DNA of 64,000 nucleotides from contig CAWGOD010000016.1 in assembly GCA_963824175.1 (NCBI GenBank), positions 43,103-107,102 on the forward strand, in the 5' to 3' direction. This stretch comes from an uncultured Chloroflexia bacterium (GTDB lineage: Bacteria; Chloroflexota; Anaerolineae; Anaerolineales; UBA11858). The notes below the pieces were generated by a model that saw nothing but the letters and a program-made list of their open reading frames with translations, was not told the origin of the DNA and made no database searches. Positions 3,534-56,290 of this stretch are shown here, in pieces. Position 1 is the first letter of the stretch; each line of letters begins with the position of its first letter. A program made the translations under genes and the position numbers.

Positions 3534-3574
3534 CCGACTTACTATTTACCCTTACTAGATACTGATCACTGATC
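3534..3574. repeat. Short intergenic motif CCGACTTACTATTT plus CTTACTA and tandem ACTGATC ACTGATC heptamers
   Basis: Direct reading. The motif YCRACTTACTAYTT recurs at 13219, 42104 and 42311. Confidence 0.5.
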
Positions 3575-5450
3575 ACTTCAGCCTTCTTACATCCCCTTCC
3601 CGAACCGTAACACCTTCAGCATCCAACCCTTCCAAAAAGGCCAGCATGTATTTCCGGCTGCTGCCAAACATATCCCTGGTCTGGGCTACTGTGATTGGGC
3701 CATCTTTAGCAATCTTCTTCTTCAGCTTCTCCACCATCGATTGATAAGCGTCCGGGGTGAATACCACCTCAGTGGAAAGTTGTTTGAGTTCATTCAAGGC
3801 GATCAGGGCGTTATATAGGTCCTCGCCAATGGCATCTTTGGATTCTGCCACAGACGGTGGTTGGGTTGGATCGGCAGCGAATTGATCCAGCAGGCCTTTA
3901 GTCAGTTTTTTCTGCTCAGCCGAAAGTCTAATTTCAAAATCCAATTTCCTGATGTTAGGACCAGTCTGTATTACATTCCCGGCTGTTATTAACCCCTCAA
4001 CAGCCACTTTAAAGACATTTTCCGCCAGTTTGGATTGGCTTTTGAGTTCTTCCAGAGCCATTCCAACTTTCATGGGATATTTCTGATGATAATCTTCGAT
4101 CCGGGAATCCAGTCCTGACAGGGTGCTTTCCCAGGTACTTTTAAGAGTAAGGAACTTTTTGCTTTTCTTTCCTAATTCCAGAGCAATGTCATCCTCGATC
4201 AGCTGATCCAGGATTTCTCTCGCTGATCCCTCATCCAATCCGGATATTTCCAGGATCTGCTTCCAGGGAGAGAATCTATCTCTCGCAAGGGCCTGTATCA
4301 GTACATCCGCCGGATCACCATCTGAGATGGATTCCAGCCTGTCGAGTGTTTCCTTATCAAACCGTTTATGCCGGTAGGGAGGATAGGGGTCGATCACAAC
4401 TCCCCCTCCCAGGGTTTCGGATGGCGAAGGCCTTCTCAGGATATACCTGTCACCCCTGACTGCGACCACTGGATCATCGACTTCAAGCTGCAGCAGCGCA
4501 TTTTCACCAGGTTTTAACTGCTCTACACCTAATAGCCTCACCCTGGCCCGGGTCTCATCCGCTCCCAGAAAAAGTTTGGTTTCCAGATCGTGCCGGAGAG
4601 GTTTATCGATGCCCGGCAGGAACTTAAAGCTGACATCCAAACGGCGGGTTGGTTGATATTCCCCTGGATGAGTGAGGGTATCCCCTCTTTTGATCTCGTT
4701 ATTTTCAATTCCTGAGATATTCACTGCAACCCGGTTTCCGGGACCGATCATCTTTACTTCCTGGCTGTGATTTTGCAGCCCCCTGATTCGGCCAGATTTC
4801 TTCTCCGGCAGCAATTCTACTTCTTCACCAACCTGGAGTGATCCATCCAGAAGGGTTCCGGTTACAACCGATCCGAACCCTGACATTAAAAAGACCCGAT
4901 CGACAGATAAGCGGGGCCTGCCCAAATCCGGGCGTTCCGGTTGATCTTCCAATATAGTACTCAGGGTATTTAACAGATCATCAATTCCAGATTTGGTTTT
5001 GGCTGATACCCGAACAATAGGAGCATCTTTCAGCACTGTGGTGGAAATCAATTCACTGATCTCCACTTCAACCAGATCAAGCCAATCCGGATCATCTACC
5101 AGGTCGGTTTTTGTGAGGGCAACCAATCCCTTCTTAACTTCCAGCAGATCCAGGATATCCAGATGTTCCCTGGTCTGGGGCATCACACCCTCATCAGCTG
5201 CGATCACCAGCAGGCAAGCATCAATGCTGCCAATCCCGGATAACATATTTTCAATGAAATCCCGATGGCCTGGCACATCCACAACGCTGATGCCCTTGCC
5301 ATCCGGCAGTTGGAAACTATCAAAACCCAGGACAATGCTCATCTCCCGCTCACGCTCTTCCGCCAGACGGTCAGGATGGGTCCCGGTGATAGCTTCTATC
5401 AGGGTGGATTTTCCGTGGTCTACATGACCTGCTGTGCCAATGATGTACAT
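3573..5450 (-). CDS. selB: Selenocysteine-specific translation elongation factor SelB
   Basis: 625 aa. GTPase motifs AGHVDHGKST, DVPGH and TKTD are present, and a long C-terminal winged-helix extension is typical of bacterial SelB. Confidence 0.9.
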   Translation of the reverse strand: MYIIGTAGHVDHGKSTLIEAITGTHPDRLAEEREREMSIVLGFDSFQLPDGKGISVVDVPGHRDFIENMLSGIGSIDACLLVIAADEGVMPQTREHLDILDLLEVKKGLVALTKTDLVDDPDWLDLVEVEISELISTTVLKDAPIVRVSAKTKSGIDDLLNTLSTILEDQPERPDLGRPRLSVDRVFLMSGFGSVVTGTLLDGSLQVGEEVELLPEKKSGRIRGLQNHSQEVKMIGPGNRVAVNISGIENNEIKRGDTLTHPGEYQPTRRLDVSFKFLPGIDKPLRHDLETKLFLGADETRARVRLLGVEQLKPGENALLQLEVDDPVVAVRGDRYILRRPSPSETLGGGVVIDPYPPYRHKRFDKETLDRLESISDGDPADVLIQALARDRFSPWKQILEISGLDEGSAREILDQLIEDDIALELGKKSKKFLTLKSTWESTLSGLDSRIEDYHQKYPMKVGMALEELKSQSKLAENVFKVAVEGLITAGNVIQTGPNIRKLDFEIRLSAEQKKLTKGLLDQFAADPTQPPSVAESKDAIGEDLYNALIALNELKQLSTEVVFTPDAYQSMVEKLKKKIAKDGPITVAQTRDMFGSSRKYMLAFLEGLDAEGVTVREGDVRRLK

Positions 5451-5515
5451 AATAATTTAATAAGGGATTGAATCCTTCCAATGAAAGGGACGAGTCTTCA
5501 AATCCCTGGAAATTT

Positions 5516-6693
5516 CTATCGAAAACCATCCATGATCTGCTCGAAATCGCCTGCCCAATCGCGCATCAGACTCAACAGACTCTGCAGCTGGTTCTCGGTA
5601 TATTTATTGATCTGCGCCATCTGATCTTCAATTTCTTGCATTCCATCTTCCAATACAGAAATGCGGTCTTCGTCTTCTTGATACTGGCGTCCAAGAAGCT
5701 TGGATTGTTCTTTTTGGGACATTGTGTAGTTTGTCCAGCGTTTCTGGTCATCAGCTTGAAAGTGGTCCATTCCGCCCTAAATTTCTCATCCGCCAATCGC
5801 TGCATTTCAGTGATCTCATTCACTCTTCGATCCAACAGGGAGGATAGATCCTTCAACTCATCCTGCATTCGTTTGATCCCCCGGTGAGTAGTATCCAATT
5901 TTGTCATCTGCTCATCCAGATCCTGAGCTTGCTTTTCAACGCTATCGAATTGGGCCATCCAGTTTTTCCAGGTCGTTTCACGTTCGGTCGATTTCAGGTT
6001 AGCCTGTTCAAGGAATGTCTCCTGATCTTTCTTAAGATCCCGGCGGGTTGATTCCACCTCCTGGATCCTGCTCTTGATCTTCTGATTATCACTGCTTACT
6101 AGATCTAGCAATCCCCTAACCTCATCTACTCGTTTACGCAGGGCTGACTGTTCTGCCTGCATATCCGCAACTCGCTTGATTTCCTTCTCACGCTCCAGTT
6201 TGGCTGCCTTTATATCACGCTGATATTCCTTATTGTCCTTCTTGATATCATCATAAGAATTTTCCATTTCGCGCAAGGAAGCATTAAACCGGTTCTCTTC
6301 TTCTACCCGGGTGTTCATGTCATTTTCCAGGATTTTAATTTTTTTATTCTCTTCCAGCAGTTTCTTTTGTTGAGTTTCAAGCCCTCGCAATTGAGTCCGG
6401 AGATCTTTCTTTGCATCAGCAATCCAGGATTTCGTCATTTTTTCATGGTCTTTTAATTCTTTCTTCCTGTCCAACCTGAAAACACCAAGATCTGTCTCAA
6501 AGTCATCCACACGGGTAACCGAGGTCCTCAACCGGGTTAGATCACTGTCGTATTCCCGGGTTTTCGTGTTAACAGCGTTCAGTTTTTCTTCTAGTTTCAG
6601 CAGCCGATTTTCCAGTTCAGAGATGATCGTTTTATCTTTTCTTCTTTCATCATCCAGCCATTTGATGCGCTTTTCCAATTGTTCATTATCCAT
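5516..6693 (-). CDS. About 392-aa coiled-coil protein of unknown function, frame-disrupted near 5760
   Basis: The sequence is almost entirely heptad-like and K/E/R/D/L/Q-rich. The last roughly 75 aa (…DDQKRWTNYTMSQKEQSKLL…DWAGDFEQIMDGFR*) are in the frame of track ORF 5516-5770. Confidence 0.6.
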
Positions 6694-6732
6694 GAATGAT
6701 TCTCCTCAAGACGGAATATTTAAGGCATTGAG

Positions 6733-6741
6733 ATTATAGCA
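6733..6741 (-). promoter_or_regulatory. Candidate extended -10 promoter (TGCTATAAT) for the coiled-coil gene / selB
   Basis: The reverse complement of 6733-6741 reads TGCTATAAT, about 40 nt upstream of the GAGGAG RBS and the ATG at 6693. No good -35 element. Confidence 0.35.
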
Positions 6742-6793
6742 TGCTAGACCTTTGAATTTTTATTGGAAATCCGGAGGTGGAGGGCTTTTTTCC

Positions 6794-8185
6794 TCAGGAT
6801 CCCAGCAGCAGATCAGAGATAGAACGCGTCACACTGAATAACCACTGGGGAAGGAATCCGATCAATATCAAAAGGAAATTTAAACCCAGGATCAAGTACC
6901 GATAAAAAGGCTCTCCCAGGATCAAGATCGATTCCTCGCCCGTATTTTTTGTTAATGCTCCCAGCAAACGCAGCCCGCCGAATACCAATCCCAGCGTGCT
7001 GAGTACAAATATTATATTGATCCAAAGAGGATAAAAGCTGAGGCCCGAACCCAAAGCCCAATAGATAGGGAATCCGCCCAGTAATGGTACTCCAGCCAGC
7101 GCAAAATACCCCAGCAGCAGTCCTGATGAAATCACTGGCCATAATCTGGCAGCTCCGGAGACTGATTGAAAATCAAGGTCATAAATACCTTGCTGTAATT
7201 GGGTCAGGGAAATTGACCAGACTCCCAGGGAAATACTCTGGAGGATCACCATCCCAAAATAGATTGGAAAGCCAGCCTGGAAGAGGCTGATAGCCAGTAA
7301 GGACCGGCCAATTTCCGCAATGATCACCGCTCCCATTAATCTTCCCAGGTGTTTAGAGAAGATGGCCATAAAACCACCAAATCCCAGCATGATCACACCA
7401 GCAAGCTGGAGAGGAACCTGGATGTTTACCCCTTGCCCGATCCAACCACCCTCCAGGATAAACCGTGTACCAAATAGGAACACTCCAAGGAAGTATGAAT
7501 TAAAGATGAAACCTGACAAAAATGGGTGGTTCCTCTCCCCGACCATCGATATCCAACTTATGAATGGAAAAATGGATAACAAAAAGGAAAAACCCAGAGC
7601 CAGGATCAACAGTGAGCGGGCTAACATCACTTGATTTCCTCTGTTTAGGTCTATCCAGCTGGCGAGCCAGGCCGCGAAAAGAATGAATAACATCCCCAGG
7701 ATCTGGAATATTAAAAATCGCAAAACTCCAGGCGTGGGTTCTTTCCCAGGAGGAGACAACAAGACCACATAGATCAAAGCCAGGAAAGCGAAAAACAGGG
7801 CTCCATAAAAGATTGGCTCAACTGAGTAAGCAGTGAGTATGAAACATATTCCGGCCAGGCTGAGGGGTATGAACTGCGGCGGGACCAGCTTGGGATCCAT
7901 GATCAATATCCAGAATAGCCACAGGGAAAATAGCAGAATGACTATCGGACGATCTCCCCCTGAGAGGATGAAACGCCTGCCGAAAATTAACAGCTGATCG
8001 GAAAATTCCACCTCCCAGAACAGGAATTTAAATGCTTCATTAATTGGCAAGGCAATCGCTGAGGTAACCAATACAAGGCCGAAACCCAAACCACTCCATC
8101 TCAGGAGATTTTTATACCGAAAGAAAAACATCGCTGATCCTGCTGCCAGAAGAGGCATAAGGATCCATAAAATCGGCGTGCTCAC
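6794..8185 (-). CDS. Polytopic membrane protein, weakly NuoN/MnhD (antiporter-like) in pattern
   Basis: 463 aa, roughly 12-14 hydrophobic helices, and only a faint Proton_antipo_M-like segment (FPFISWISMVGERNHPFLSGF). The GTG start overlaps the upstream stop (GTGA at 8182-8185). Confidence 0.6.
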   Translation of the reverse strand: MSTPILWILMPLLAAGSAMFFFRYKNLLRWSGLGFGLVLVTSAIALPINEAFKFLFWEVEFSDQLLIFGRRFILSGGDRPIVILLFSLWLFWILIMDPKLVPPQFIPLSLAGICFILTAYSVEPIFYGALFFAFLALIYVVLLSPPGKEPTPGVLRFLIFQILGMLFILFAAWLASWIDLNRGNQVMLARSLLILALGFSFLLSIFPFISWISMVGERNHPFLSGFIFNSYFLGVFLFGTRFILEGGWIGQGVNIQVPLQLAGVIMLGFGGFMAIFSKHLGRLMGAVIIAEIGRSLLAISLFQAGFPIYFGMVILQSISLGVWSISLTQLQQGIYDLDFQSVSGAARLWPVISSGLLLGYFALAGVPLLGGFPIYWALGSGLSFYPLWINIIFVLSTLGLVFGGLRLLGALTKNTGEESILILGEPFYRYLILGLNFLLILIGFLPQWLFSVTRSISDLLLGS

Positions 8186-8778
8186 GGGCTTTCCTCCAAA
8201 TTGGATGCCATTAATAAATAGGACCCCAAGAATGCAAAACCGATATTCAGGATAGCCAGCAGTCCTGTCATTAACACAGACGCTTCCAGGGTTGCGTACA
8301 GGATCTCAAATCCTGAGATCACAGTCAATAAACCGATAATGACACGAAGGCTATCCCGGGTCAATACCAGCTGCAGCAGTCCTAAACCAAGGAGCCATAA
8401 TCCTCCCAATACTTGCTGATGAGTCGCACCCAGAAACCAGCGTAGAGCGGTCGGAACCAGGGAATATACAGAGATACCGATCAATAAGGCCGTAAATCCC
8501 CTAAAAGAAGTCACAGGAAGATTTGAATCTATTCGGCCTTCGCTAGTCGGTCCAGGCAAATTCTGGTAAGTTAGGAACAGAACAGCTGAAGCCATCCAGC
8601 CGGCAACCAGTTTCACTACAGCGATCTCCAATGGCCAGCTAACACTGACTAACAGGAAGACTCCGATATACTGCAGAGCCAGCAATCCTGTCATTAACCG
8701 TCTGCTGGGTACGATCAGAATCCCAGCCCCGCAGATGAATAAGAGTGCAACCAGAAGAGACTGTAAAATTTCAGACAT
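8182..8778 (-). CDS. Membrane protein resembling a tandem duplication of a NuoK/MnhC-like 3-helix unit
   Basis: 198 aa in two halves, each carrying an R-R/D-x-L...(I/L)GL/ALQ...-type motif (SRRLMTGLLALQYIGVFLL; TRDSLRVIIGLLTVISGFEIL). This is reminiscent of the NuoK motif RRNLLxMLIGLEIM. Confidence 0.55.
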   Translation of the reverse strand: MSEILQSLLVALLFICGAGILIVPSRRLMTGLLALQYIGVFLLVSVSWPLEIAVVKLVAGWMASAVLFLTYQNLPGPTSEGRIDSNLPVTSFRGFTALLIGISVYSLVPTALRWFLGATHQQVLGGLWLLGLGLLQLVLTRDSLRVIIGLLTVISGFEILYATLEASVLMTGLLAILNIGFAFLGSYLLMASNLEESP

Positions 8779-8783
8779 CTATA

Positions 8784-10313
8784 TTATCCGCCTCTCACAC
8801 TGATCAAGGCTATGATCAGGAAACCCAATAATAGAGTCCAGATCAATCCTCCATCACCTTCAAATAAACGCGTGAACAGATATACTACTTCATCAGCCCA
8901 TCGGGGAAATGAACTTGCACCAGCATCAATTAGTGATCTGATTTTTCCTTTGAACCTATCCAGTCGGGATGTATTTATCACAGGGATCCTGTCCCAGAAC
9001 AGAACTGCAACGCCGAATAATAAAGCAGCGATCCAGGCACCAACTGGAACAGAAGAAAAGGCCAGGCTTGTTTTTATCAAACCCGCCTGAAAAGATATGG
9101 AATACTGAGAGATCAAGATCACTGCATATCCAGTAATGGTGAGGGGAGAGATCTGTTCGGTTGGTGTTTCAATCTCCCGCCAGACCTGGATCCTGTGATT
9201 GAAAATTCTACCCAGGAATATGCCAACTATTGCGGAGAAAAACAGGCCCGGTATCCCGATCAAAGAAACCAATCCCACCCAGGAAGGGAAAAATGGCAGA
9301 GGAAGGATCCCAATTCCTCCCACGATCAATGCCAGGCTAGCGCCTCTTTTTGATCCAAAACTCTTAAACAACACAAGGCTGGGCATTAGAAAAACGCCTC
9401 CCCAGACCAGAACGGCTTCTGGTGCAGCGAAAACGAATCCTGAGATTAAAAGGGCCAGACCTCCAACTATCCAAACCCTGCCAGGCTGATTGAAAAGTAC
9501 ATTTATCAAAAACAAAAGGAAAGTCAGAATCGCCGCAGCCAAAAACAATCCAGGCGAAACCTCAGCCGGGGTGAAGATCTGGGCAGCCCGTGTGATCAGT
9601 ACCAAACCCAGGATTGCGGGAGTCCAAGATAGATATTTACCAGGCCGAATATCGGAACTCTCTTCCTGAGAAATTTTAGGGGTAAGGAACCATCCTCCAA
9701 AACCAATTCCTCCCGCAGTCATTAGAATTGGCGCTGCGGATGGGGGTAATTCTGTCAGAAATGGTGCTATCCCGTTTAATGAGTTAACCAGGGAAATATA
9801 AATGACCAGCAAAGGTCCAGTCAGACGGACCAAAATGCTGAAGATATAACGATGACTGATTGTCATTTCCCCTTGATTCTTGAGAAAACTATAGAGAGCC
9901 AAAGCCTCTATCACAGTCCAGACCAATGCCAATGTGTAAGCTGAATCCACCAACGTACCGATCACACATATTCCGCCTAAAGCCGTGATCCAGGCATTGG
10001 TTTGGGGTGAATGTCCTTCAATCAGGGTTCCAAAGAAAATCAGTGTTGTTACAACCAAAAAATAGGAACTGGAGACCCAATCCAGAGAAAAAGCTAGGCT
10101 GGGGAGCAGTGTTTCACCCGCATTCCAAATCGGGTTCAGGTGATGATCCGGAGTGAAAAAGAAAAAGGCCAGGGAAATCAGCCAGGCCATACCCGTAGTA
10201 AGCATCACCCAGAACTGCAGTTTTTGCAGGTTTTGATCAAACCTCTTGAATAACCCCAACAGGACTGGATTTATGATTAAAAATAAAGCACTGAAAAAAG
10301 GAAAGAGACTCAA
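8784..10313 (-). CDS. Polytopic membrane protein, weakly NuoL/MnhA (antiporter-like) in pattern
   Basis: 509 aa and highly hydrophobic, with an LPLPFFPSW segment. The TTG start lies 4 nt after the folK stop. No soluble domain. Confidence 0.55.
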   Translation of the reverse strand: MSLFPFFSALFLIINPVLLGLFKRFDQNLQKLQFWVMLTTGMAWLISLAFFFFTPDHHLNPIWNAGETLLPSLAFSLDWVSSSYFLVVTTLIFFGTLIEGHSPQTNAWITALGGICVIGTLVDSAYTLALVWTVIEALALYSFLKNQGEMTISHRYIFSILVRLTGPLLVIYISLVNSLNGIAPFLTELPPSAAPILMTAGGIGFGGWFLTPKISQEESSDIRPGKYLSWTPAILGLVLITRAAQIFTPAEVSPGLFLAAAILTFLLFLINVLFNQPGRVWIVGGLALLISGFVFAAPEAVLVWGGVFLMPSLVLFKSFGSKRGASLALIVGGIGILPLPFFPSWVGLVSLIGIPGLFFSAIVGIFLGRIFNHRIQVWREIETPTEQISPLTITGYAVILISQYSISFQAGLIKTSLAFSSVPVGAWIAALLFGVAVLFWDRIPVINTSRLDRFKGKIRSLIDAGASSFPRWADEVVYLFTRLFEGDGGLIWTLLLGFLIIALISVRGG

Positions 10314-10317
10314 GGGG

Positions 10318-10812
10318 TTATTCCTGGTATAAATCTACGCCTGTTTGATCGACAAACACCAGCAGGTCAGAAATGGAAGAATCTGTTCCCGGATAGTTCA
10401 GATCAGGATCGATATCTGCCAGAGGGATCAGCACAAATGCCCGATCCTTTATACGGGGATGAGGGATTATCAAGTCCTCTTCATGGATGATCCGATCCCC
10501 ATAAAAAAGAATATCAATATCCACAATCCGTGGTCCAAAACGAAAGCTGGGTTTCCTGCCAATTTTCTTCTCAACACCCTTAATATATTCAAGCAGATCA
10601 CGCGGTGAAAGAATTGTTTCAACCGCAAGAACCTGGTTAAGGAAATCTGGCTGATCAAGATAGCCCCAGGGTTCAGTCTGGTAAACGGGAGAACTATCCA
10701 GGATTTTCACTTGCGGGGGAAGGTCAGCTTTAACCGCTTCCAGGTTCAATTCCCGGTTTCCCAGATTTGTTCCTAATGATAGGTAAATTCGTTCTGATTG
10801 AATTTCATTCAT
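10318..10812 (-). CDS. folK: 2-amino-4-hydroxy-6-hydroxymethyldihydropteridine diphosphokinase (HPPK)
   Basis: Contains IYLSLGTNLG...PVYQTEPWGY...GPRIVDIDILFY...IPHPRIKDRAFVLIPL. I prefer the ATG at 10812 (MNEIQSER...); the track ORF extends to a GTG at 10854. Confidence 0.85.
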   Translation of the reverse strand: MNEIQSERIYLSLGTNLGNRELNLEAVKADLPPQVKILDSSPVYQTEPWGYLDQPDFLNQVLAVETILSPRDLLEYIKGVEKKIGRKPSFRFGPRIVDIDILFYGDRIIHEEDLIIPHPRIKDRAFVLIPLADIDPDLNYPGTDSSISDLLVFVDQTGVDLYQE

Positions 10813-10910
10813 AGCAAAAAGGGGGTAAATCCTGTCTTTGCTTAAGGATAACACACCTGATTCATTCAGTGGTTTCAGATAGATTTATCTGATAAGCTCT
10901 TCCTACCCTG

Positions 10911-10939
10911 TTGCCAGTTAACTCTCGTTTTGGTATAAT
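10911..10939 (+). promoter_or_regulatory. Sigma-70-type promoter for tRNA-Ser (TTGCCA-17-TATAAT)
   Basis: -35 TTGCCA at 10911-10916, a 17-nt spacer ending in TGG, and -10 TATAAT at 10934-10939. The promoter sits 21 nt before the tRNA. Confidence 0.7.
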
Positions 10940-10959: not shown

Positions 10960-11046
10960 GGAGGGGTCGCATAGTCCGGCCTAGTGCGCGCGCTTGGAGA
11001 GCGCGTATTCCTCACGGAATCGTGGGTTCGAATCCCACCCCCTCCG
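10960..11046 (+). tRNA. tRNA-Ser (anticodon GGA), type II with long variable arm, no encoded CCA
   Basis: Manual cloverleaf: acceptor GGAGGGG/CCCCTCC; anticodon stem CGCGC/GCGCG with loop TTGGAGA; variable arm ATTCC-TCAC-GGAAT; T arm GTGGG-TTCGAAT-CCCAC; discriminator G. Confidence 0.9.
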
Positions 11047-11055
11047 CCTTCAAAT

Positions 11056-11521: not shown

Positions 11522-11550
11522 ATTGACACCCATACTCAGCTTTGGTATCA
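11522..11550 (+). promoter_or_regulatory. Sigma-70-type promoter for SRP RNA (TTGACA-17-TATCAT)
   Basis: -35 TTGACA at 11522-11527, a 17-nt spacer, and -10 TATCAT at 11545-11550. Confidence 0.7.
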
Positions 11551-11555
11551 TGCCC

Positions 11556-11669
11556 ACGAGCTTCGGGTGGGTCCGGCGCGGCAGAGCCCTTTGAACCGTG
11601 TCAGATCCGAAAGGAAGCAGCACTAAGGAGGATCCTCTGGGTGCCGCCGGTATGCCTACCCGAGGCTTT
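11556..11669 (+). ncRNA. ffs: Signal recognition particle RNA (small bacterial 4.5S type)
   Basis: The domain IV core GUGUCAGAUCCGAAAGGAAGCAGCACUAAGG matches the conserved GGUCAGGUCCGGAAGGAAGCAGCCAAGG of E. coli 4.5S RNA, including a GNRA loop. The 5' end AGCUUCGGGUGGG pairs with the 3' end CCUACCCGAGGCU. The exact ends are uncertain by a few nt. Confidence 0.85.
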
Positions 11670-11686
11670 TCCTTTACTTACAAACC

Positions 11687-13090
11687 ATGAATATCCCTGA
11701 TCTAATTAAAAAACCTCTCTTCCAATGGATCGCAGCTGGACTGGCTGCTTTCGTAGGGATTGTGTTAATCATTCTTAGTCTTCATAAGATGGTTTTTTTG
11801 GTTGTGAACGGGGAAATAAATGAAATTAGCACATATGCCCTGACTGTAAAAAGCCTATTGAAGAGCCAGGATCTTCATATTACAGAGGATGAACGCATCA
11901 CGCCTGATCCTGATTCTATACTCTGGGGTGGTGAAGTGATCATCCTAAATATTGCCAACTCCGTTGAGATCACGGCCGACGGTGATGTGAACACCTTGCA
12001 AACAGCAGAGCGCCGACCTGAGAATATCCTCCTGGATCTGGGAGTAAGGCTATTTCCAAAAGACAGGATCACAGTGAACGGGGTCGTTTCCGGAAATGAT
12101 TTACTCCTTTCCCTGGGAAAATCTTATCAAATCCAGCTGCTACGAGGAACTTCCGTAACGATTGAGTTTGAAAACGGCAGCCAGCAATTTATCAGTGATG
12201 CAGATACTCTCTCAGAGGCCCTTGAAGATAATGGGATTGAAATTTTTGAAGCTGACCAACTCTCAAAACCACTCGACACATCTCTCGATGGGTCATCAAT
12301 TTCTGTCAGCCTGATCCGAGCTGAACCACTGTTGGTTCATCTGGTAGATGAAGCAATAACAATCAGAACCACAGCAAAAACAGTAGGTGCAGCCCTGGTC
12401 CAAGGCGGTATCGCTCTTCAGGGATTGGATTACAGCATCCCCGCTGAAAATGAACCTCTACCAGAGAATGACGAAGTTCAAATCATTCGTGTTCGGGAAG
12501 AGATCCTTCTCAATCAGGAACTGATTCAGTTTAGCAATGAATACCAGCCAGCGGATGATTTACCCCTTGATCAAGTGCAGATCATGACCGGTGGGGAATA
12601 CGGGATACAGGCCCAGCGCCTTCGGATTATGTACGAAAATGACAGGGAAGTCAGCCGAGACTTGGAGAAAGAATGGGTCATCAAGGAACCTAGTCCCCGC
12701 ATCATCGGTTATGGTACGCAGATCAATCTTGAGACAGCTGATACAGGGGATGGGCAGATCACCTATTGGCGAAAAATCACCGCCTATGCAACTTCGTACG
12801 ACGAGACCTGTCTAGGCTGCAATAACTACACATCCAGCGGTCATTATCTGGATAGAGGGGTCATAGCAGTAACACTGGATTGGTATCGTTACATGAAAGG
12901 CATGCGGGTCTACATCCCTAGATATGGTTTTGCGACCATTGAAGATGTCGGACAAGGAGTTTCTTGGAGCACAAACTGGGTTGATCTTGGTTATCGACAC
13001 GAAGATCTTGTGATCTGGAGTGAATACGTTGACGTCTATTTCCTGGCTCCCGCTCCCCCACCAGAGGATATTATGTATGTTTTGTATTAG
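11687..13090 (+). CDS. Membrane-anchored cell-wall protein with DUF348-like repeats, a G5 domain and a C-terminal 3D (RlpA-like) domain (YabE/RpfB-like architecture)
   Basis: 467 aa with an N-terminal TM helix, a G5-like segment (EVQIIRVREEILLNQELIQF...RIIGYGT), and a 3D-domain tail (ITAYATSYDETCLGCNNYTSSGH...GVIAV...ATIEDVG). Confidence 0.8.
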   Translation: MNIPDLIKKPLFQWIAAGLAAFVGIVLIILSLHKMVFLVVNGEINEISTYALTVKSLLKSQDLHITEDERITPDPDSILWGGEVIILNIANSVEITADGDVNTLQTAERRPENILLDLGVRLFPKDRITVNGVVSGNDLLLSLGKSYQIQLLRGTSVTIEFENGSQQFISDADTLSEALEDNGIEIFEADQLSKPLDTSLDGSSISVSLIRAEPLLVHLVDEAITIRTTAKTVGAALVQGGIALQGLDYSIPAENEPLPENDEVQIIRVREEILLNQELIQFSNEYQPADDLPLDQVQIMTGGEYGIQAQRLRIMYENDREVSRDLEKEWVIKEPSPRIIGYGTQINLETADTGDGQITYWRKITAYATSYDETCLGCNNYTSSGHYLDRGVIAVTLDWYRYMKGMRVYIPRYGFATIEDVGQGVSWSTNWVDLGYRHEDLVIWSEYVDVYFLAPAPPPEDIMYVLY

Positions 13091-54679: not shown

Positions 54680-56290
54680 TTACCAATCCAGAGCCCCTAC
54701 ACGACCATCACCAGTGACCTGCCAAGCGTCTCCTGTTTCAGGGTCCAGGATCCAGATATTGCCTTCGTAAATGACTGCCAGAGGGTATGTCCCACTAGCT
54801 TGTGCTGTTATAGGTGACCAGGCACCCCATCCTCGGGATGGCTGCAAACCAGGGCTGTCCGACGCAGGGAAAATCAGGCGTTGATTGGATCCATCCCGAT
54901 CCATCATACTAACCCGGTAATTACTAGTTGCACTCTGCTCTGGAAAAATAGCTTGCAGATAAGCAACCTGGTACGAGGCTTCTCCAGTAGCTTTGGCTGT
55001 TATCGGGGAAGGTAGCGGGTATGCGAACATACCAACGTCATATACCAACGTTTGCACACCACCACCTGTTAGCGGGATGGCCACCAGGTCAAATACAGGG
55101 GATTCCTCGTCAGCTTGAGAACCATTTTGGGAAGCATGATCGACCGAAAAGATCACATTACCAAGCGGACCCATTCCAATTCCCGGCATCCAGGCCCAAT
55201 CTCCCTGGGTTTTAAAAGGAATAAGTTCCAGGAAAACCTGCTTTTCAGCTTCCTCATAAGGAATGATGCCAATTTGATCCGGGCTGGCATATGCTACAAA
55301 ATCACCTCCGGGAGAGAACTGGAAATCTGTTCCCCACCAGCCATAGACACCGCCATAATTAGTTTCCTGCAATGTATTCACTCGCTGCGTCCAACCATTT
55401 TCACTAAATACTTTTATTATCAGGTCATTATTTGCCTGCCATCCCGGCGCAGACAAGCGCGGTTCCACTGAAGAGAAAGCAAATTTGGGTTCAATATCTG
55501 GTACCCAGCCAGCATAATGGATCACATTCAGTGTATCCAACCCGATCAACAAATCTTCGGGATCATCAAGAGACACTACCCAGAGGGAATTAATGACCTC
55601 TTCATCTTCTTCCGCCCGGGTGAATAATAACCACTCACCATCCTCAGAAAGTGAAAACACCCTGCCGTCCAGGTCCCCTGTAGCTACAAGCAAGTAGCGG
55701 TTAGCTGTCGACTGATCCATAACCCAGGCATTACCGTTGGATATATAGACCAGCGGACTTGGCAAACTAATTGGCGCGATGGAAGATTGAACGCCGACCA
55801 GGATGATTTCATTGACAGTTTCTTCCAGATCTAGGCTGCTGATTTCACTGAAAGAGATCTCCTCGCCATTTTCAAAAACACGCACAGAGATGATCTCTCG
55901 TAGCCCGTTTTTCCCTGCCTGAAGCAGCTTTTCCTGCCCAGCAGGTAAGTTTTCCGTTGGCTGGCGGATGACCTCAAAAGGTATTACGATCTGTTCAGTT
56001 TCGATATTTTCTTCCACCCTGATGACATGGATATCAGCGTCCTCTGTCAAGGTGATCACCACAGCCGGTTCAGAGCGATCTTTTCCTGTCAGGGAGATCC
56101 CAGCTAAGTCCAACGTATCCCCTACTGTTGTGCCAGCAGGAACCTGAATGGACTCTTGCTGTCCATCGACATTGATCTGGATCTGGATCTCTTCCTGTAC
56201 AGATGGTTGAGAGATTGTGGAACAACCAGAACCTATCAAAACCAGGATACAGGCAATAAGGACGATCTTGTAAAAATGGTATAATCTCAT
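54680..56290 (-). CDS. Lipoprotein with N-terminal G5 domain and C-terminal TolB-like beta-propeller region
   Basis: 536 aa with lipobox LIGSGC and a G5-like segment (IVIPFEVIRQPTENLPAGQEKLLQAGKNGLREIISVRVFENGEE). The remainder is W/G/D-rich repeats. Confidence 0.65.
   Translation of the reverse strand: MRLYHFYKIVLIACILVLIGSGCSTISQPSVQEEIQIQINVDGQQESIQVPAGTTVGDTLDLAGISLTGKDRSEPAVVITLTEDADIHVIRVEENIETEQIVIPFEVIRQPTENLPAGQEKLLQAGKNGLREIISVRVFENGEEISFSEISSLDLEETVNEIILVGVQSSIAPISLPSPLVYISNGNAWVMDQSTANRYLLVATGDLDGRVFSLSEDGEWLLFTRAEEDEEVINSLWVVSLDDPEDLLIGLDTLNVIHYAGWVPDIEPKFAFSSVEPRLSAPGWQANNDLIIKVFSENGWTQRVNTLQETNYGGVYGWWGTDFQFSPGGDFVAYASPDQIGIIPYEEAEKQVFLELIPFKTQGDWAWMPGIGMGPLGNVIFSVDHASQNGSQADEESPVFDLVAIPLTGGGVQTLVYDVGMFAYPLPSPITAKATGEASYQVAYLQAIFPEQSATSNYRVSMMDRDGSNQRLIFPASDSPGLQPSRGWGAWSPITAQASGTYPLAVIYEGNIWILDPETGDAWQVTGDGRVGALDW

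Follow-up and report, generated by a model that had tools for sequence, protein, structure and literature searches.

The gene array

The window analysed in this work is a 64,000-nucleotide stretch of a contig from an uncultured Chloroflexia bacterium (CAWGOD010000016.1, assembly GCA_963824175.1). Its subject here is a compact minus-strand array spanning positions 3573-10854, in which folK is followed by three genes for strongly hydrophobic membrane proteins (designated A, B and C), by a gene for a coiled-coil protein (X) and by selB (Table 1). An earlier reading of the sequence, henceforth the original prediction, had interpreted A, B and C as a free-standing set of L-like, duplicated NuoK-like and N-like subunits detached from complex I or from the Mrp antiporter. 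The comparative analysis conducted here points to A and C as remote members of the antiporter-like superfamily that have replaced their relay lysines, and reveals a conserved association of the trio with X and selB in the Anaerolineae.

The three membrane-protein genes stand at the coordinates and with the lengths first assigned to them, and they are packed as tightly as had been described, with gaps of 4 nucleotides (nt) between folK and A and of 5 nt between A and B, and with a GTGA overlap between B and C. Their depiction as nearly pure transmembrane (TM) proteins is borne out by a grand average of hydropathy (GRAVY) of 0.89-1.11 and by 12, 7 and 12 hydropathy peaks in A, B and C, respectively, and the four peptide motifs that had been quoted are all found in the proteins. 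Ratios of nonsynonymous to synonymous substitution rates (dN/dS) against close relatives are low for A (0.17-0.23), B (0.08-0.12) and C (0.085-0.094) and similar to that of selB; hence, A, B and C can be taken as real genes under purifying selection. Synonymous divergence (dS) from the closest genome (L005; numbers of this kind designate comparison loci) is uneven along positions 5760-10313, with values of 0.16 in C, 0.28 in B, 0.33 in A and 0.75 in X, which suggests recombination or a mosaic or chimeric assembly. The identities proposed for the two outer genes are secured by matches to TIGR01498 for folK (4e-41) and to TIGR00475 for selB (322 bits, against an equivalog cutoff of 242), and the SelB winged-helix domains PF09106, PF09107 and PF25461 are present in the latter. 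Since the equivalog cutoff is passed and a selenocysteine tRNA (tRNA-Sec) gene follows selB at a distance of about 4 kb in a Longilinea metagenome-assembled genome (MAG; L083:19361-19456, minus strand), selB appears to be a genuine SelB. No other tRNA-Sec was seen in a scan of 60 loci, nor was one detected in the window.

Table 1. Position and nature of the features discussed in the text (window coordinates; aa, amino acids).
Feature	Position	Strand	Size and start	Description
folK (HPPK)	10318-10854	minus		4 nt upstream of A; neighbour in the window's clade, outside the conserved array
A	8784-10313	minus	509 aa, TTG start	predicted NuoL/MrpA-N-like membrane protein of about 16 helices
B	8182-8778	minus	198 aa	seven-helix membrane protein by prediction; unmatched in fold and profile searches
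C	6794-8185	minus	463 aa, GTG start	divergent antiporter-like subunit (Proton_antipo_M superfamily, NuoN/MrpD-like)
Candidate promoter	6724-6741	minus		extended -10-like element TGCTATAAT (6741-6733) with conserved CTCAATGCC; about 45 nt before the start codon of X
X	5516-6693	minus	1178 nt	conserved cytoplasmic coiled-coil family of about 392 aa; frame-split in the window
selB	3573-5450	minus		selenocysteine-specific elongation factor; usual last gene of the conserved array
Promoter of tRNA-Ser	10911-10939			sigma-70-like, near consensus
tRNA-Ser(GGA)	10960-11048	plus		divergent from folK
Promoter of small SRP RNA	11523-11551			sigma-70-like, near consensus
Small SRP RNA	11565-11664	plus		bacterial type; SRP, signal recognition particle
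G5/DUF348 protein	11687-13090	plus		divergent neighbour on the folK side of the operon
G5/DUF348 protein	54680-56290	minus		paralogue of the preceding entry

Antiporter-like ancestry of proteins C and A

Taken as a single sequence, C has no match in Pfam, NCBIfam or PDB. Its 119 homologues stem mostly from Anaerolineales/Chloroflexota MAGs, and the most distant among them (25-36% identity) carry the PF00361 domain, which is matched by 14 of 30 family members. When a profile of 30 family sequences is compared with the PDB, it recovers an MBS subunit (6u8y_X, 2e-26), E. coli NuoN (3e-21) and, further down, MrpD, ND2, ND4 and ND5; that is, antiporter-like chains only. The Longilinea arvoryzae orthologue also matches the NuoN model TIGR01770 (8e-18), but it does so at 65 bits, against a cutoff of 333. 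Because the profile matches are strong and the TIGR01770 score is nonetheless far under its cutoff, C is a genuine, if highly divergent, antiporter-like subunit of the PF00361 superfamily and not a NuoN. The NuoN/MnhD label that JGI pipelines attach to members of its family is a loose automatic annotation. The N-like character originally read into C is thus upheld by profile evidence.

No match was obtained for the single sequence of A in Pfam, NCBIfam or PDB, for the profile of its family against the PDB or in Pfam scans of 48 family members. The family itself is extensive: searched against 1.84 billion proteins, its profile gathers 800 representative clusters (E<=1e-3), and all are of about 500-550 aa. 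A is the fastest-evolving protein of the trio, showing ~36% identity where C shows ~65% and B ~71%. An hhalign comparison of the A and C families yields a colinear alignment with the motifs in register, which is not significant (E 0.08, then 0.01; probability 4%).

The placement of A comes from its predicted structure. The AlphaFold2 model reaches a predicted local distance difference test (pLDDT) score of 85 and a predicted template modelling score of 0.87, and its top 50 Foldseek matches in the PDB are all antiporter-like chains of complex I or Mrp (best E 1.6e-7, probability 1.0), an outcome of just the kind of structural comparison that had been proposed with the original prediction. The first 28 ranks are taken by NuoL/ND5/NdhF-type chains, while MrpA appears at rank 39 and NuoM chains also fall below the first 28; template modelling scores against NuoL, ND5, NdhF and MrpA chains are 0.5-0.65. 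The model displays a broken-helix pattern at residues 322-349, with the break at 336-343, that corresponds to TM12. At its C-terminus, where pLDDT is 59-78, two charged helices predicted to be amphipathic (449-467 and 469-484) are followed by a hydrophobic TM helix (487-505), and an invariant E485-G-D-G-G motif precedes this terminal TM. The predicted layout resembles that of the lateral helix and TM16 of NuoL and MrpA, and the modelled helices, with an estimated length of ~54 Å, would be enough to span one adjacent subunit. On the strength of the model, A is thus best described as L-type at the level of fold, and in that form the L-like reading made of it originally holds through structure, not through sequence.

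A conserved seven-helix protein between A and C

B is the best conserved of the three proteins, with 747 homologues, none of which is annotated. Together with the homologues and clusters counted above for C and A, these sequences dispel the notion that the trio consists of orphans. The AlphaFold2 model of B (pLDDT 81.5) has seven helices, in agreement with its hydropathy peaks, and residues R27, Q36, Y37, K56, R145, E158, Y161, E165 and Y187 are invariant or nearly so, with Y37, K56, R145, E158 and E165 conserved to this degree across all lineages.

Searches with the single sequence in Pfam, NCBIfam and PDB and with the B-family profile in the PDB returned nothing, and Foldseek finds no PDB match for the model at E<1 (best E 1.2). 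B had been viewed as a tandem duplication of a three-helix NuoK/MnhC-type unit, and this candidate found no support. The protein has seven helices instead of 3+3, its N- and C-terminal halves align in hhalign with a probability below 1%, revealing no internal duplication, and a PF00420 match appears in 2 of 15 members, at E=3.3 and with 8 bits where the cutoff is 26. Comparison of B with NuoK, either that of E. coli or a three-sequence NuoK profile, likewise gives probabilities below 1%, and E. coli NuoJ is also at decoy level. Against the canonical MrpC of the same clade the probability is 2% and the score 16, with decoys at 11-15 in two runs, and MrpB is again at decoy level; the positive control, MrpC against NuoK, gives 53%. 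A (T/Q)R(D/N)x(L/V)R(V/M)(I/V)IGL motif of B aligns to the TM1-TM2 loop of MrpC/NuoK, a likeness that alone is no evidence of homology.

Replacement and relocation of buried charges

The residues of C were mapped by aligning 72 genome-derived C sequences with E. coli NuoL, NuoM and NuoN. At the TM7 lysine position, five residues before a conserved proline, C carries Leu or Trp (L202 in the window), and no Lys or Arg is found anywhere in the TM7 segment of any of the 72 sequences. The TM5 glutamate position is occupied by Glu in 40 sequences and by Ala in 29 (A133 in the window), whereas the TM12 Lys/Glu position holds Arg in 39, Tyr in 27 (Y375 in the window), His in 4 and Lys in 1. TM5 and TM12 pair as Glu/Arg in 35 sequences and as Ala/Tyr in 21, and intermediates exist. 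In protein A, the acidic residue borne by the TM5 helix, one turn off the canonical Trp-Glu spacing, is E136 in the window and Asp in 36 of 36 sequences of the other clade, the TM7 position is Arg in 53 of 72 sequences and Gly or Ser in the window's clade (G204 in the window), and the broken-helix region, taken as 322-352, contains no charged residue. A lysine after TM9, in the sequence DIKR, was considered as a channel residue and dropped.

Taken together, the two proteins exhibit two main states with intermediates, in which an Asp/Arg form of A accompanies a Glu/Arg form of C, or a Glu/Gly form of A accompanies an Ala/Tyr form of C. Since it presents the second of these, the window represents the most derived, charge-poor form. 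The faint antiporter signature noticed originally is therefore degenerate down to its key residues, with the TM7 lysine missing from all 72 C sequences and both the TM5 glutamate and the TM12 lysine replaced in the window.

The glutamate missing from TM5 of C has a counterpart in B, where position 51 is Glu in those cases in which C-133 is not. Exactly one of the two positions is Glu in 54 of 62 genomes, both are in 7 and neither is in 1, so that 61 of 62 possess at least one. The complementarity is pronounced (Fisher 5e-10, a statistic that ignores phylogeny), and the switch has taken place in at least two lineages. In the structure of Mrp, the TM5 glutamate of MrpD faces and lines a cavity shared with MrpC (PMC7419157). 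If the same geometry applied here the complementarity would be explained, and B would sit beside TM5 of C.

Conservation of the array in the Anaerolineae

A scan with the B alignment over one genome per GTDB species yielded 79 loci, and four look-up loci (L001-L004) were added for the labelling of open reading frames (ORFs) with hidden Markov models. All 79 are labelled Chloroflexota, with the exception of one MAG labelled Nitrosomonadaceae, and most belong to the Anaerolineales or Anaerolineaceae; the hosts include Longilinea arvoryzae KOME-1, Anaerolinea thermolimosa IMO-1 and an A. thermophila MAG. In this combined set, A precedes B in 74 of 75 cases, C follows B in 78 of 78, X follows C in 68 of 73 and selB follows X in 50 of 58. 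A reciprocal scan of metagenome contigs anchored on X gives a concordant picture, with C (52/55), B (49/51) and A (35/36) upstream and selB (51/52) downstream. The A-B-C order is thus nearly invariant in about 160 Anaerolineae and metagenome loci, and X and selB, far from being incidental downstream genes, accompany the array as conserved partners through deep divergence.

The genes preceding the array are, on the other hand, variable. A-B-C-X-selB recurs with at least four different flanks, namely folK, an amidohydrolase after PALP-GT2-PALP (L004), an aromatic lyase on the other strand (L003) and DUF3048 (L085). The description of the operon as folK-linked consequently stands for the window's clade, to which folK before A is limited (24 of 72 loci), and fails elsewhere, where amidohydrolase, DUF3048 or aromatic lyase genes are found instead. 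In L004 (1860-7647) and 23-34 related loci of an Anaerolineaceae-type clade, the place of folK before A is taken by co-directional genes for a PALP protein, a GT2 glycosyltransferase, a second PALP protein, a 186-aa protein of unknown nature and the amidohydrolase.

In some loci the array is broken at one junction or the other. The trio lacks adjacent X and selB in five loci (L002, L030, L049, L071 and L082), and A-B-C-X lacks an adjacent selB in the eight loci of one sub-clade. A 392-aa ORF after C in L049 was considered as a divergent X and rejected, as it encodes a YkuD-like protein. In L082 (10453-11640), which corresponds to the Anaerolinea thermophila MAG and in which neither X nor selB adjoins the trio, a 395-aa protein that by eye resembles a GT4-type glycosyltransferase is encoded between B and C.

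The absence of Nuo or Mrp partners noted in the window, and the stand-alone character deduced from it, extend to about 78 genome loci. Searches by phmmer with E. coli NuoH, NuoI, NuoJ and NuoK detect no homologue within ±10 kb of the trio in any genome-derived locus, and the Pfam labels of its neighbours over five flank contexts include no MrpE, MrpF or MrpG and no peripheral-arm or redox genes. The original prediction had also entertained that the three proteins might be ordinary Nuo or Mrp subunits of a conserved operon, and the neighbourhood survey gives no indication of such partners. A canonical operon with mrpA (784 aa), mrpB (142 aa) and mrpC (153 aa) is present in L054 (623-3856, minus strand), and also in L063, L064 and L075, lying on the opposite strand and 6-8 kb from the trio. 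Because the two coexist as separate loci, the trio is not the ordinary Mrp of its host.

The coiled-coil protein X and its candidate promoter

X belongs to a family of cytoplasmic proteins (GRAVY -1.2, no TM segment) whose alignment is nearly gapless over ~392 residues at just 25-35% identity between lineages, with 42 of 73 detected X ORFs measuring exactly 392 aa. Its best conserved block, at residues 289-330, reads RRxNEITEMQRLxEERFRQEWxTFKADDQKRWTNYTL. Profile searches in Pfam, NCBIfam and PDB return generic coiled-coil noise only (SMC, Rad50, designed coiled coils). The all-coiled-coil protein of 392 aa originally described is accurate as to its nature and the length of its family, but in the window the gene is not an intact ORF. 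It is split between two frames (5572-6693, 373 aa, and 5516-5770, 84 aa): where four close relatives encode an intact 392-aa protein, the window is one base short between 5757 and 5756. The dN/dS before the break is ~0.1, and the frameshift stems either from an error in sequencing or from a lesion of very recent date that would make the gene a pseudogene.

The 100-nt gap between C and X does contain, as first noticed, a promoter-like element of its own (TGCTATAAT), which forms part of the longer element TGCTATAATCTCAATGCC. The 14-mer TATAATCTCAATGC is unique in the window, and each of 18 related loci has a single copy of it, always ~45 nt before X. In an alignment of 14 C-X spacers from the window's clade, this 14-nt block and the Shine-Dalgarno sequence are the only conserved parts, and the rest varies. 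To judge from this pattern, TATAATCTCAATGC is probably a dedicated X-selB promoter, and the conservation of the block implies that X and selB can probably be transcribed independently. In some lineages (L054, L003) the spacing between C and X is of just 0-15 nt. X-selB pairs without A-B-C occur in L119 (2746-5858) and L152 (6974-10087), where the genes upstream, on the other strand, encode a PALP enzyme and an aldo-keto reductase plus hrcA-grpE-dnaK-dnaJ, respectively. It follows that X-selB can exist as a unit of its own.

Other features of the window

On the folK side of the operon, the tRNA-Ser gene and the G5/DUF348-domain gene, both divergent from folK, are conserved across the window's clade. 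The small SRP RNA gene lies between them, each of the two RNA genes is preceded by a near-consensus sigma-70-like promoter, and the 64-kb window contains a second G5/DUF348-domain paralogue (Table 1).

Comparison with known systems

The closest parallel to the trio is found in the Mrp (CPA3) group MrpA(N-domain)-MrpC-MrpD. A would resemble the L-type subunit in its predicted C-terminal amphipathic helices and anchoring TM, C is of the D/N type, and a small multi-helix protein is encoded between them, as in mrpA-(B,C)-D. The two gene orders are thus parallel, and L002 keeps the trio by itself. A further point of likeness would be a buried acidic residue where the small subunit meets TM5 (PMC7419157). 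The differences are nonetheless substantial, for Mrp comprises the six or seven subunits MrpA-G and the array has three membrane genes only, with no MrpE, MrpF or MrpG, no MrpA C-domain and no recognisable MrpB or MrpC. The TM7 lysine is absent in C and either replaced by Arg or absent in A, the TM12 lysine has given way to Arg or Tyr, the trio is associated with a coiled-coil protein and selB, and the host can carry a separate canonical mrp. As regards the membrane arm of complex I and its relatives (NuoL/NuoK/NuoN in NDH-1, MBH and MBS), the predicted fold of A, with its broken helix at 322-349, and the homology of C speak for kinship; unlike these complexes, however, the array has no NuoH, NuoA, NuoJ, peripheral arm or redox module in its vicinity, B shows no detectable relation to NuoK and the relay residues have been lost.

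Antiporter-like subunits are also known to work outside complex I and Mrp with a soluble cytoplasmic partner, as in DAB/MpsAB, which joins the antiporter-like DabB to the cytoplasmic DabA, and in the cyanobacterial Cup modules. DAB has a single PF00361 subunit, which scores well against Pfam, and a carbonic-anhydrase-like PF10070 partner, whereas the trio has two antiporter-like subunits plus B, and its candidate partner X is a pure coiled coil. A literature search on Anaerolineae antiporter-like systems, on stand-alone MrpA/MrpD modules and on the context of selB in Anaerolinea returned nothing relevant, and A, B and X match no curated family. The superfamily to which the parts belong is known; what is new is the composition of the array, the rewiring of its residues and its link with a coiled-coil protein and selB.

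A proposed stand-alone, rewired antiporter module

The interpretation that we favour, and to which as a whole we assign a probability of about one half, is that A, B and C constitute a stand-alone, rewired antiporter module working as an ion-conducting or ion-sensing conformational device, with X as its likely cytoplasmic partner. The published antiporter module consists of MrpA/NuoL, MrpC/NuoK and MrpD/NuoN (PMC7419157). The three proteins would accordingly be subunits of a single membrane complex descended from a module formed by MrpA/NuoL, a small connector and MrpD/NuoN. A would be the distal L-type subunit, clamping its neighbour by means of its C-terminal amphipathic helices and last TM, C would be the N/D-type subunit and B would sit against TM5 of C, at the place that MrpC/NuoK occupies in known complexes. 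Such a complex would be separate from complex I, from hydrogenases and from the seven-subunit Mrp, and stripped of all their other subunits.

The relay lysines have been swapped for Arg in most lineages and for Gly, Leu or Tyr in the window's clade. As the TM7 lysines are gone, the module cannot act as a proton pump of the textbook kind. Other buried charges have been kept or even relocated, including K56, E158 and E165 of B, the acidic residue in TM5 of A and the Glu found at either C-TM5 or B-51. The combination of strong purifying selection, invariant charges in B and a compensated Glu suggests that the complex continues to depend on a buried charge or ion site, and that it is no inert relic. 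Encoded directly downstream, X is the most likely soluble partner, and selB travels in the same array.

Several observations weigh against this interpretation. The link between A and NuoL comes from predicted structure only, with sequence profile methods failing to recover it (hhalign E 0.01), and B cannot be tied to MrpC/NuoK by profile, hhalign or Foldseek. The assembly of A, B and C is argued from operon structure and analogy, the complementarity of the Glu positions is uncorrected for phylogeny and may amount to two or three independent switches, and the substitution of Arg or neutral residues for Lys may just as well signify a loss of transport. Furthermore, X has a conserved promoter-like element of its own, and its pairing with selB away from A-B-C in L119 and L152 implies that it may belong functionally with selB, or with neither.

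If transport has indeed been lost, A, B and C might form a pure scaffold that anchors or organises X, for instance as an element of the cytoskeleton, of the septum or of cell-cell junctions in these filamentous bacteria. We regard this as doubtful, even though it fares best among the alternatives. A scaffold would fit the absence of the canonical lysine relay, which the window's clade does not even replace with Arg, the rigidly maintained length of X over deep divergence, the regularity with which X follows C and the fact that the named hosts are all Anaerolineae. However, the invariant buried K56, E158 and E165 of B and the Glu retained in one place or the other in nearly all genomes would be unexpected in a passive anchor. 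X is moreover unlinked from the trio in seven loci (the five in which A-B-C stands without it, plus L119 and L152), and Pfam, NCBIfam and PDB searches tie it to no cytoskeletal family.

It is less plausible still, and on balance unlikely, that the array merely juxtaposes through inherited gene order two or three unrelated units, with A-B-C as a membrane complex, X-selB as a translation-related pair and X bearing no relation to the membrane module. The conserved block before X, the X-selB pairs found without A-B-C and the near-constant presence of selB after X in X-anchored loci are all in line with such a division, and the repeated PALP-GT2-PALP-unknown-amidohydrolase synteny indicates that gene order is generally conserved in these genomes. 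Inheritance alone does not sit well, though, with the persistence of the array as its neighbours change between at least four flanks, with the minimal C-X separation seen in some lineages or with the eight loci in which X stays with A-B-C and no selB adjoins it.

We consider it very improbable that the trio supplies the membrane arm to a larger complex of the Nuo, Mbh/Mbx, Fpo or Mrp type with its other subunits encoded elsewhere. The characterised multi-subunit assemblies with L-type and N/D-type subunits all have further subunits (PMC7419157), and the NuoN/MnhD label given to C by JGI pipelines would agree with it. Such subunits (NuoH, NuoI, NuoJ and NuoK, or MrpE, MrpF and MrpG) are nevertheless missing within ±10 kb of the trio in five flank contexts, canonical mrpA-B-C resides at a separate locus in L054 and L064, and C combines a score far below the NuoN cutoff with the loss of its coupling residues. 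Finally, an origin of A, B and C in an unrelated characterised family, which the original prediction had raised against itself and for which the empty single-sequence Pfam and NCBIfam searches initially left room, can be dismissed for the likes of O-antigen polymerase, GT-C glycosyltransferase or flippase, since the top 50 Foldseek matches of A and the PDB matches of the C profile are all antiporter-like.

A more far-reaching proposal can be built on the rewired-module interpretation, namely that A-B-C-X is an unrecognised machine common to the whole class Anaerolineae, in which an Mrp-derived module with an Arg/Glu, or relocated Glu, network would act not as an antiporter or pump, but as an ion- or voltage-driven conformational transducer to the rigid, fixed-length X. 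In that event, the lasting association with selB might have a genuine functional basis, for example membrane-linked regulation of selenoprotein synthesis, and not be hitch-hiking. This is a speculative idea that is probably wrong in this strong form, and we would place its likelihood between those of the scaffold and of inherited gene order.

Implications

How the movement of charge is coupled to conformational change in the antiporter-like subunits of complex I and Mrp is an open question in the field, and the roles of the TM5 glutamate, of the TM7 and TM12 lysines and of the NuoK/MrpC interface are still debated. The trio represents a natural and strongly conserved three-subunit version of such a system, free of accessory and redox subunits, in which the lysines appear to have been changed first to Arg and then lost, and in which a Glu seems to have moved between C, the N-type subunit, and the small subunit B across lineages. 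If it can be expressed, the complex would provide a minimal system to test which charges matter for what, and cultured hosts are available in Anaerolinea thermolimosa IMO-1 and Longilinea arvoryzae KOME-1. More generally, the analysis puts A, B, C and X, four families of proteins listed as hypothetical in hundreds of Chloroflexota genomes, into a context.

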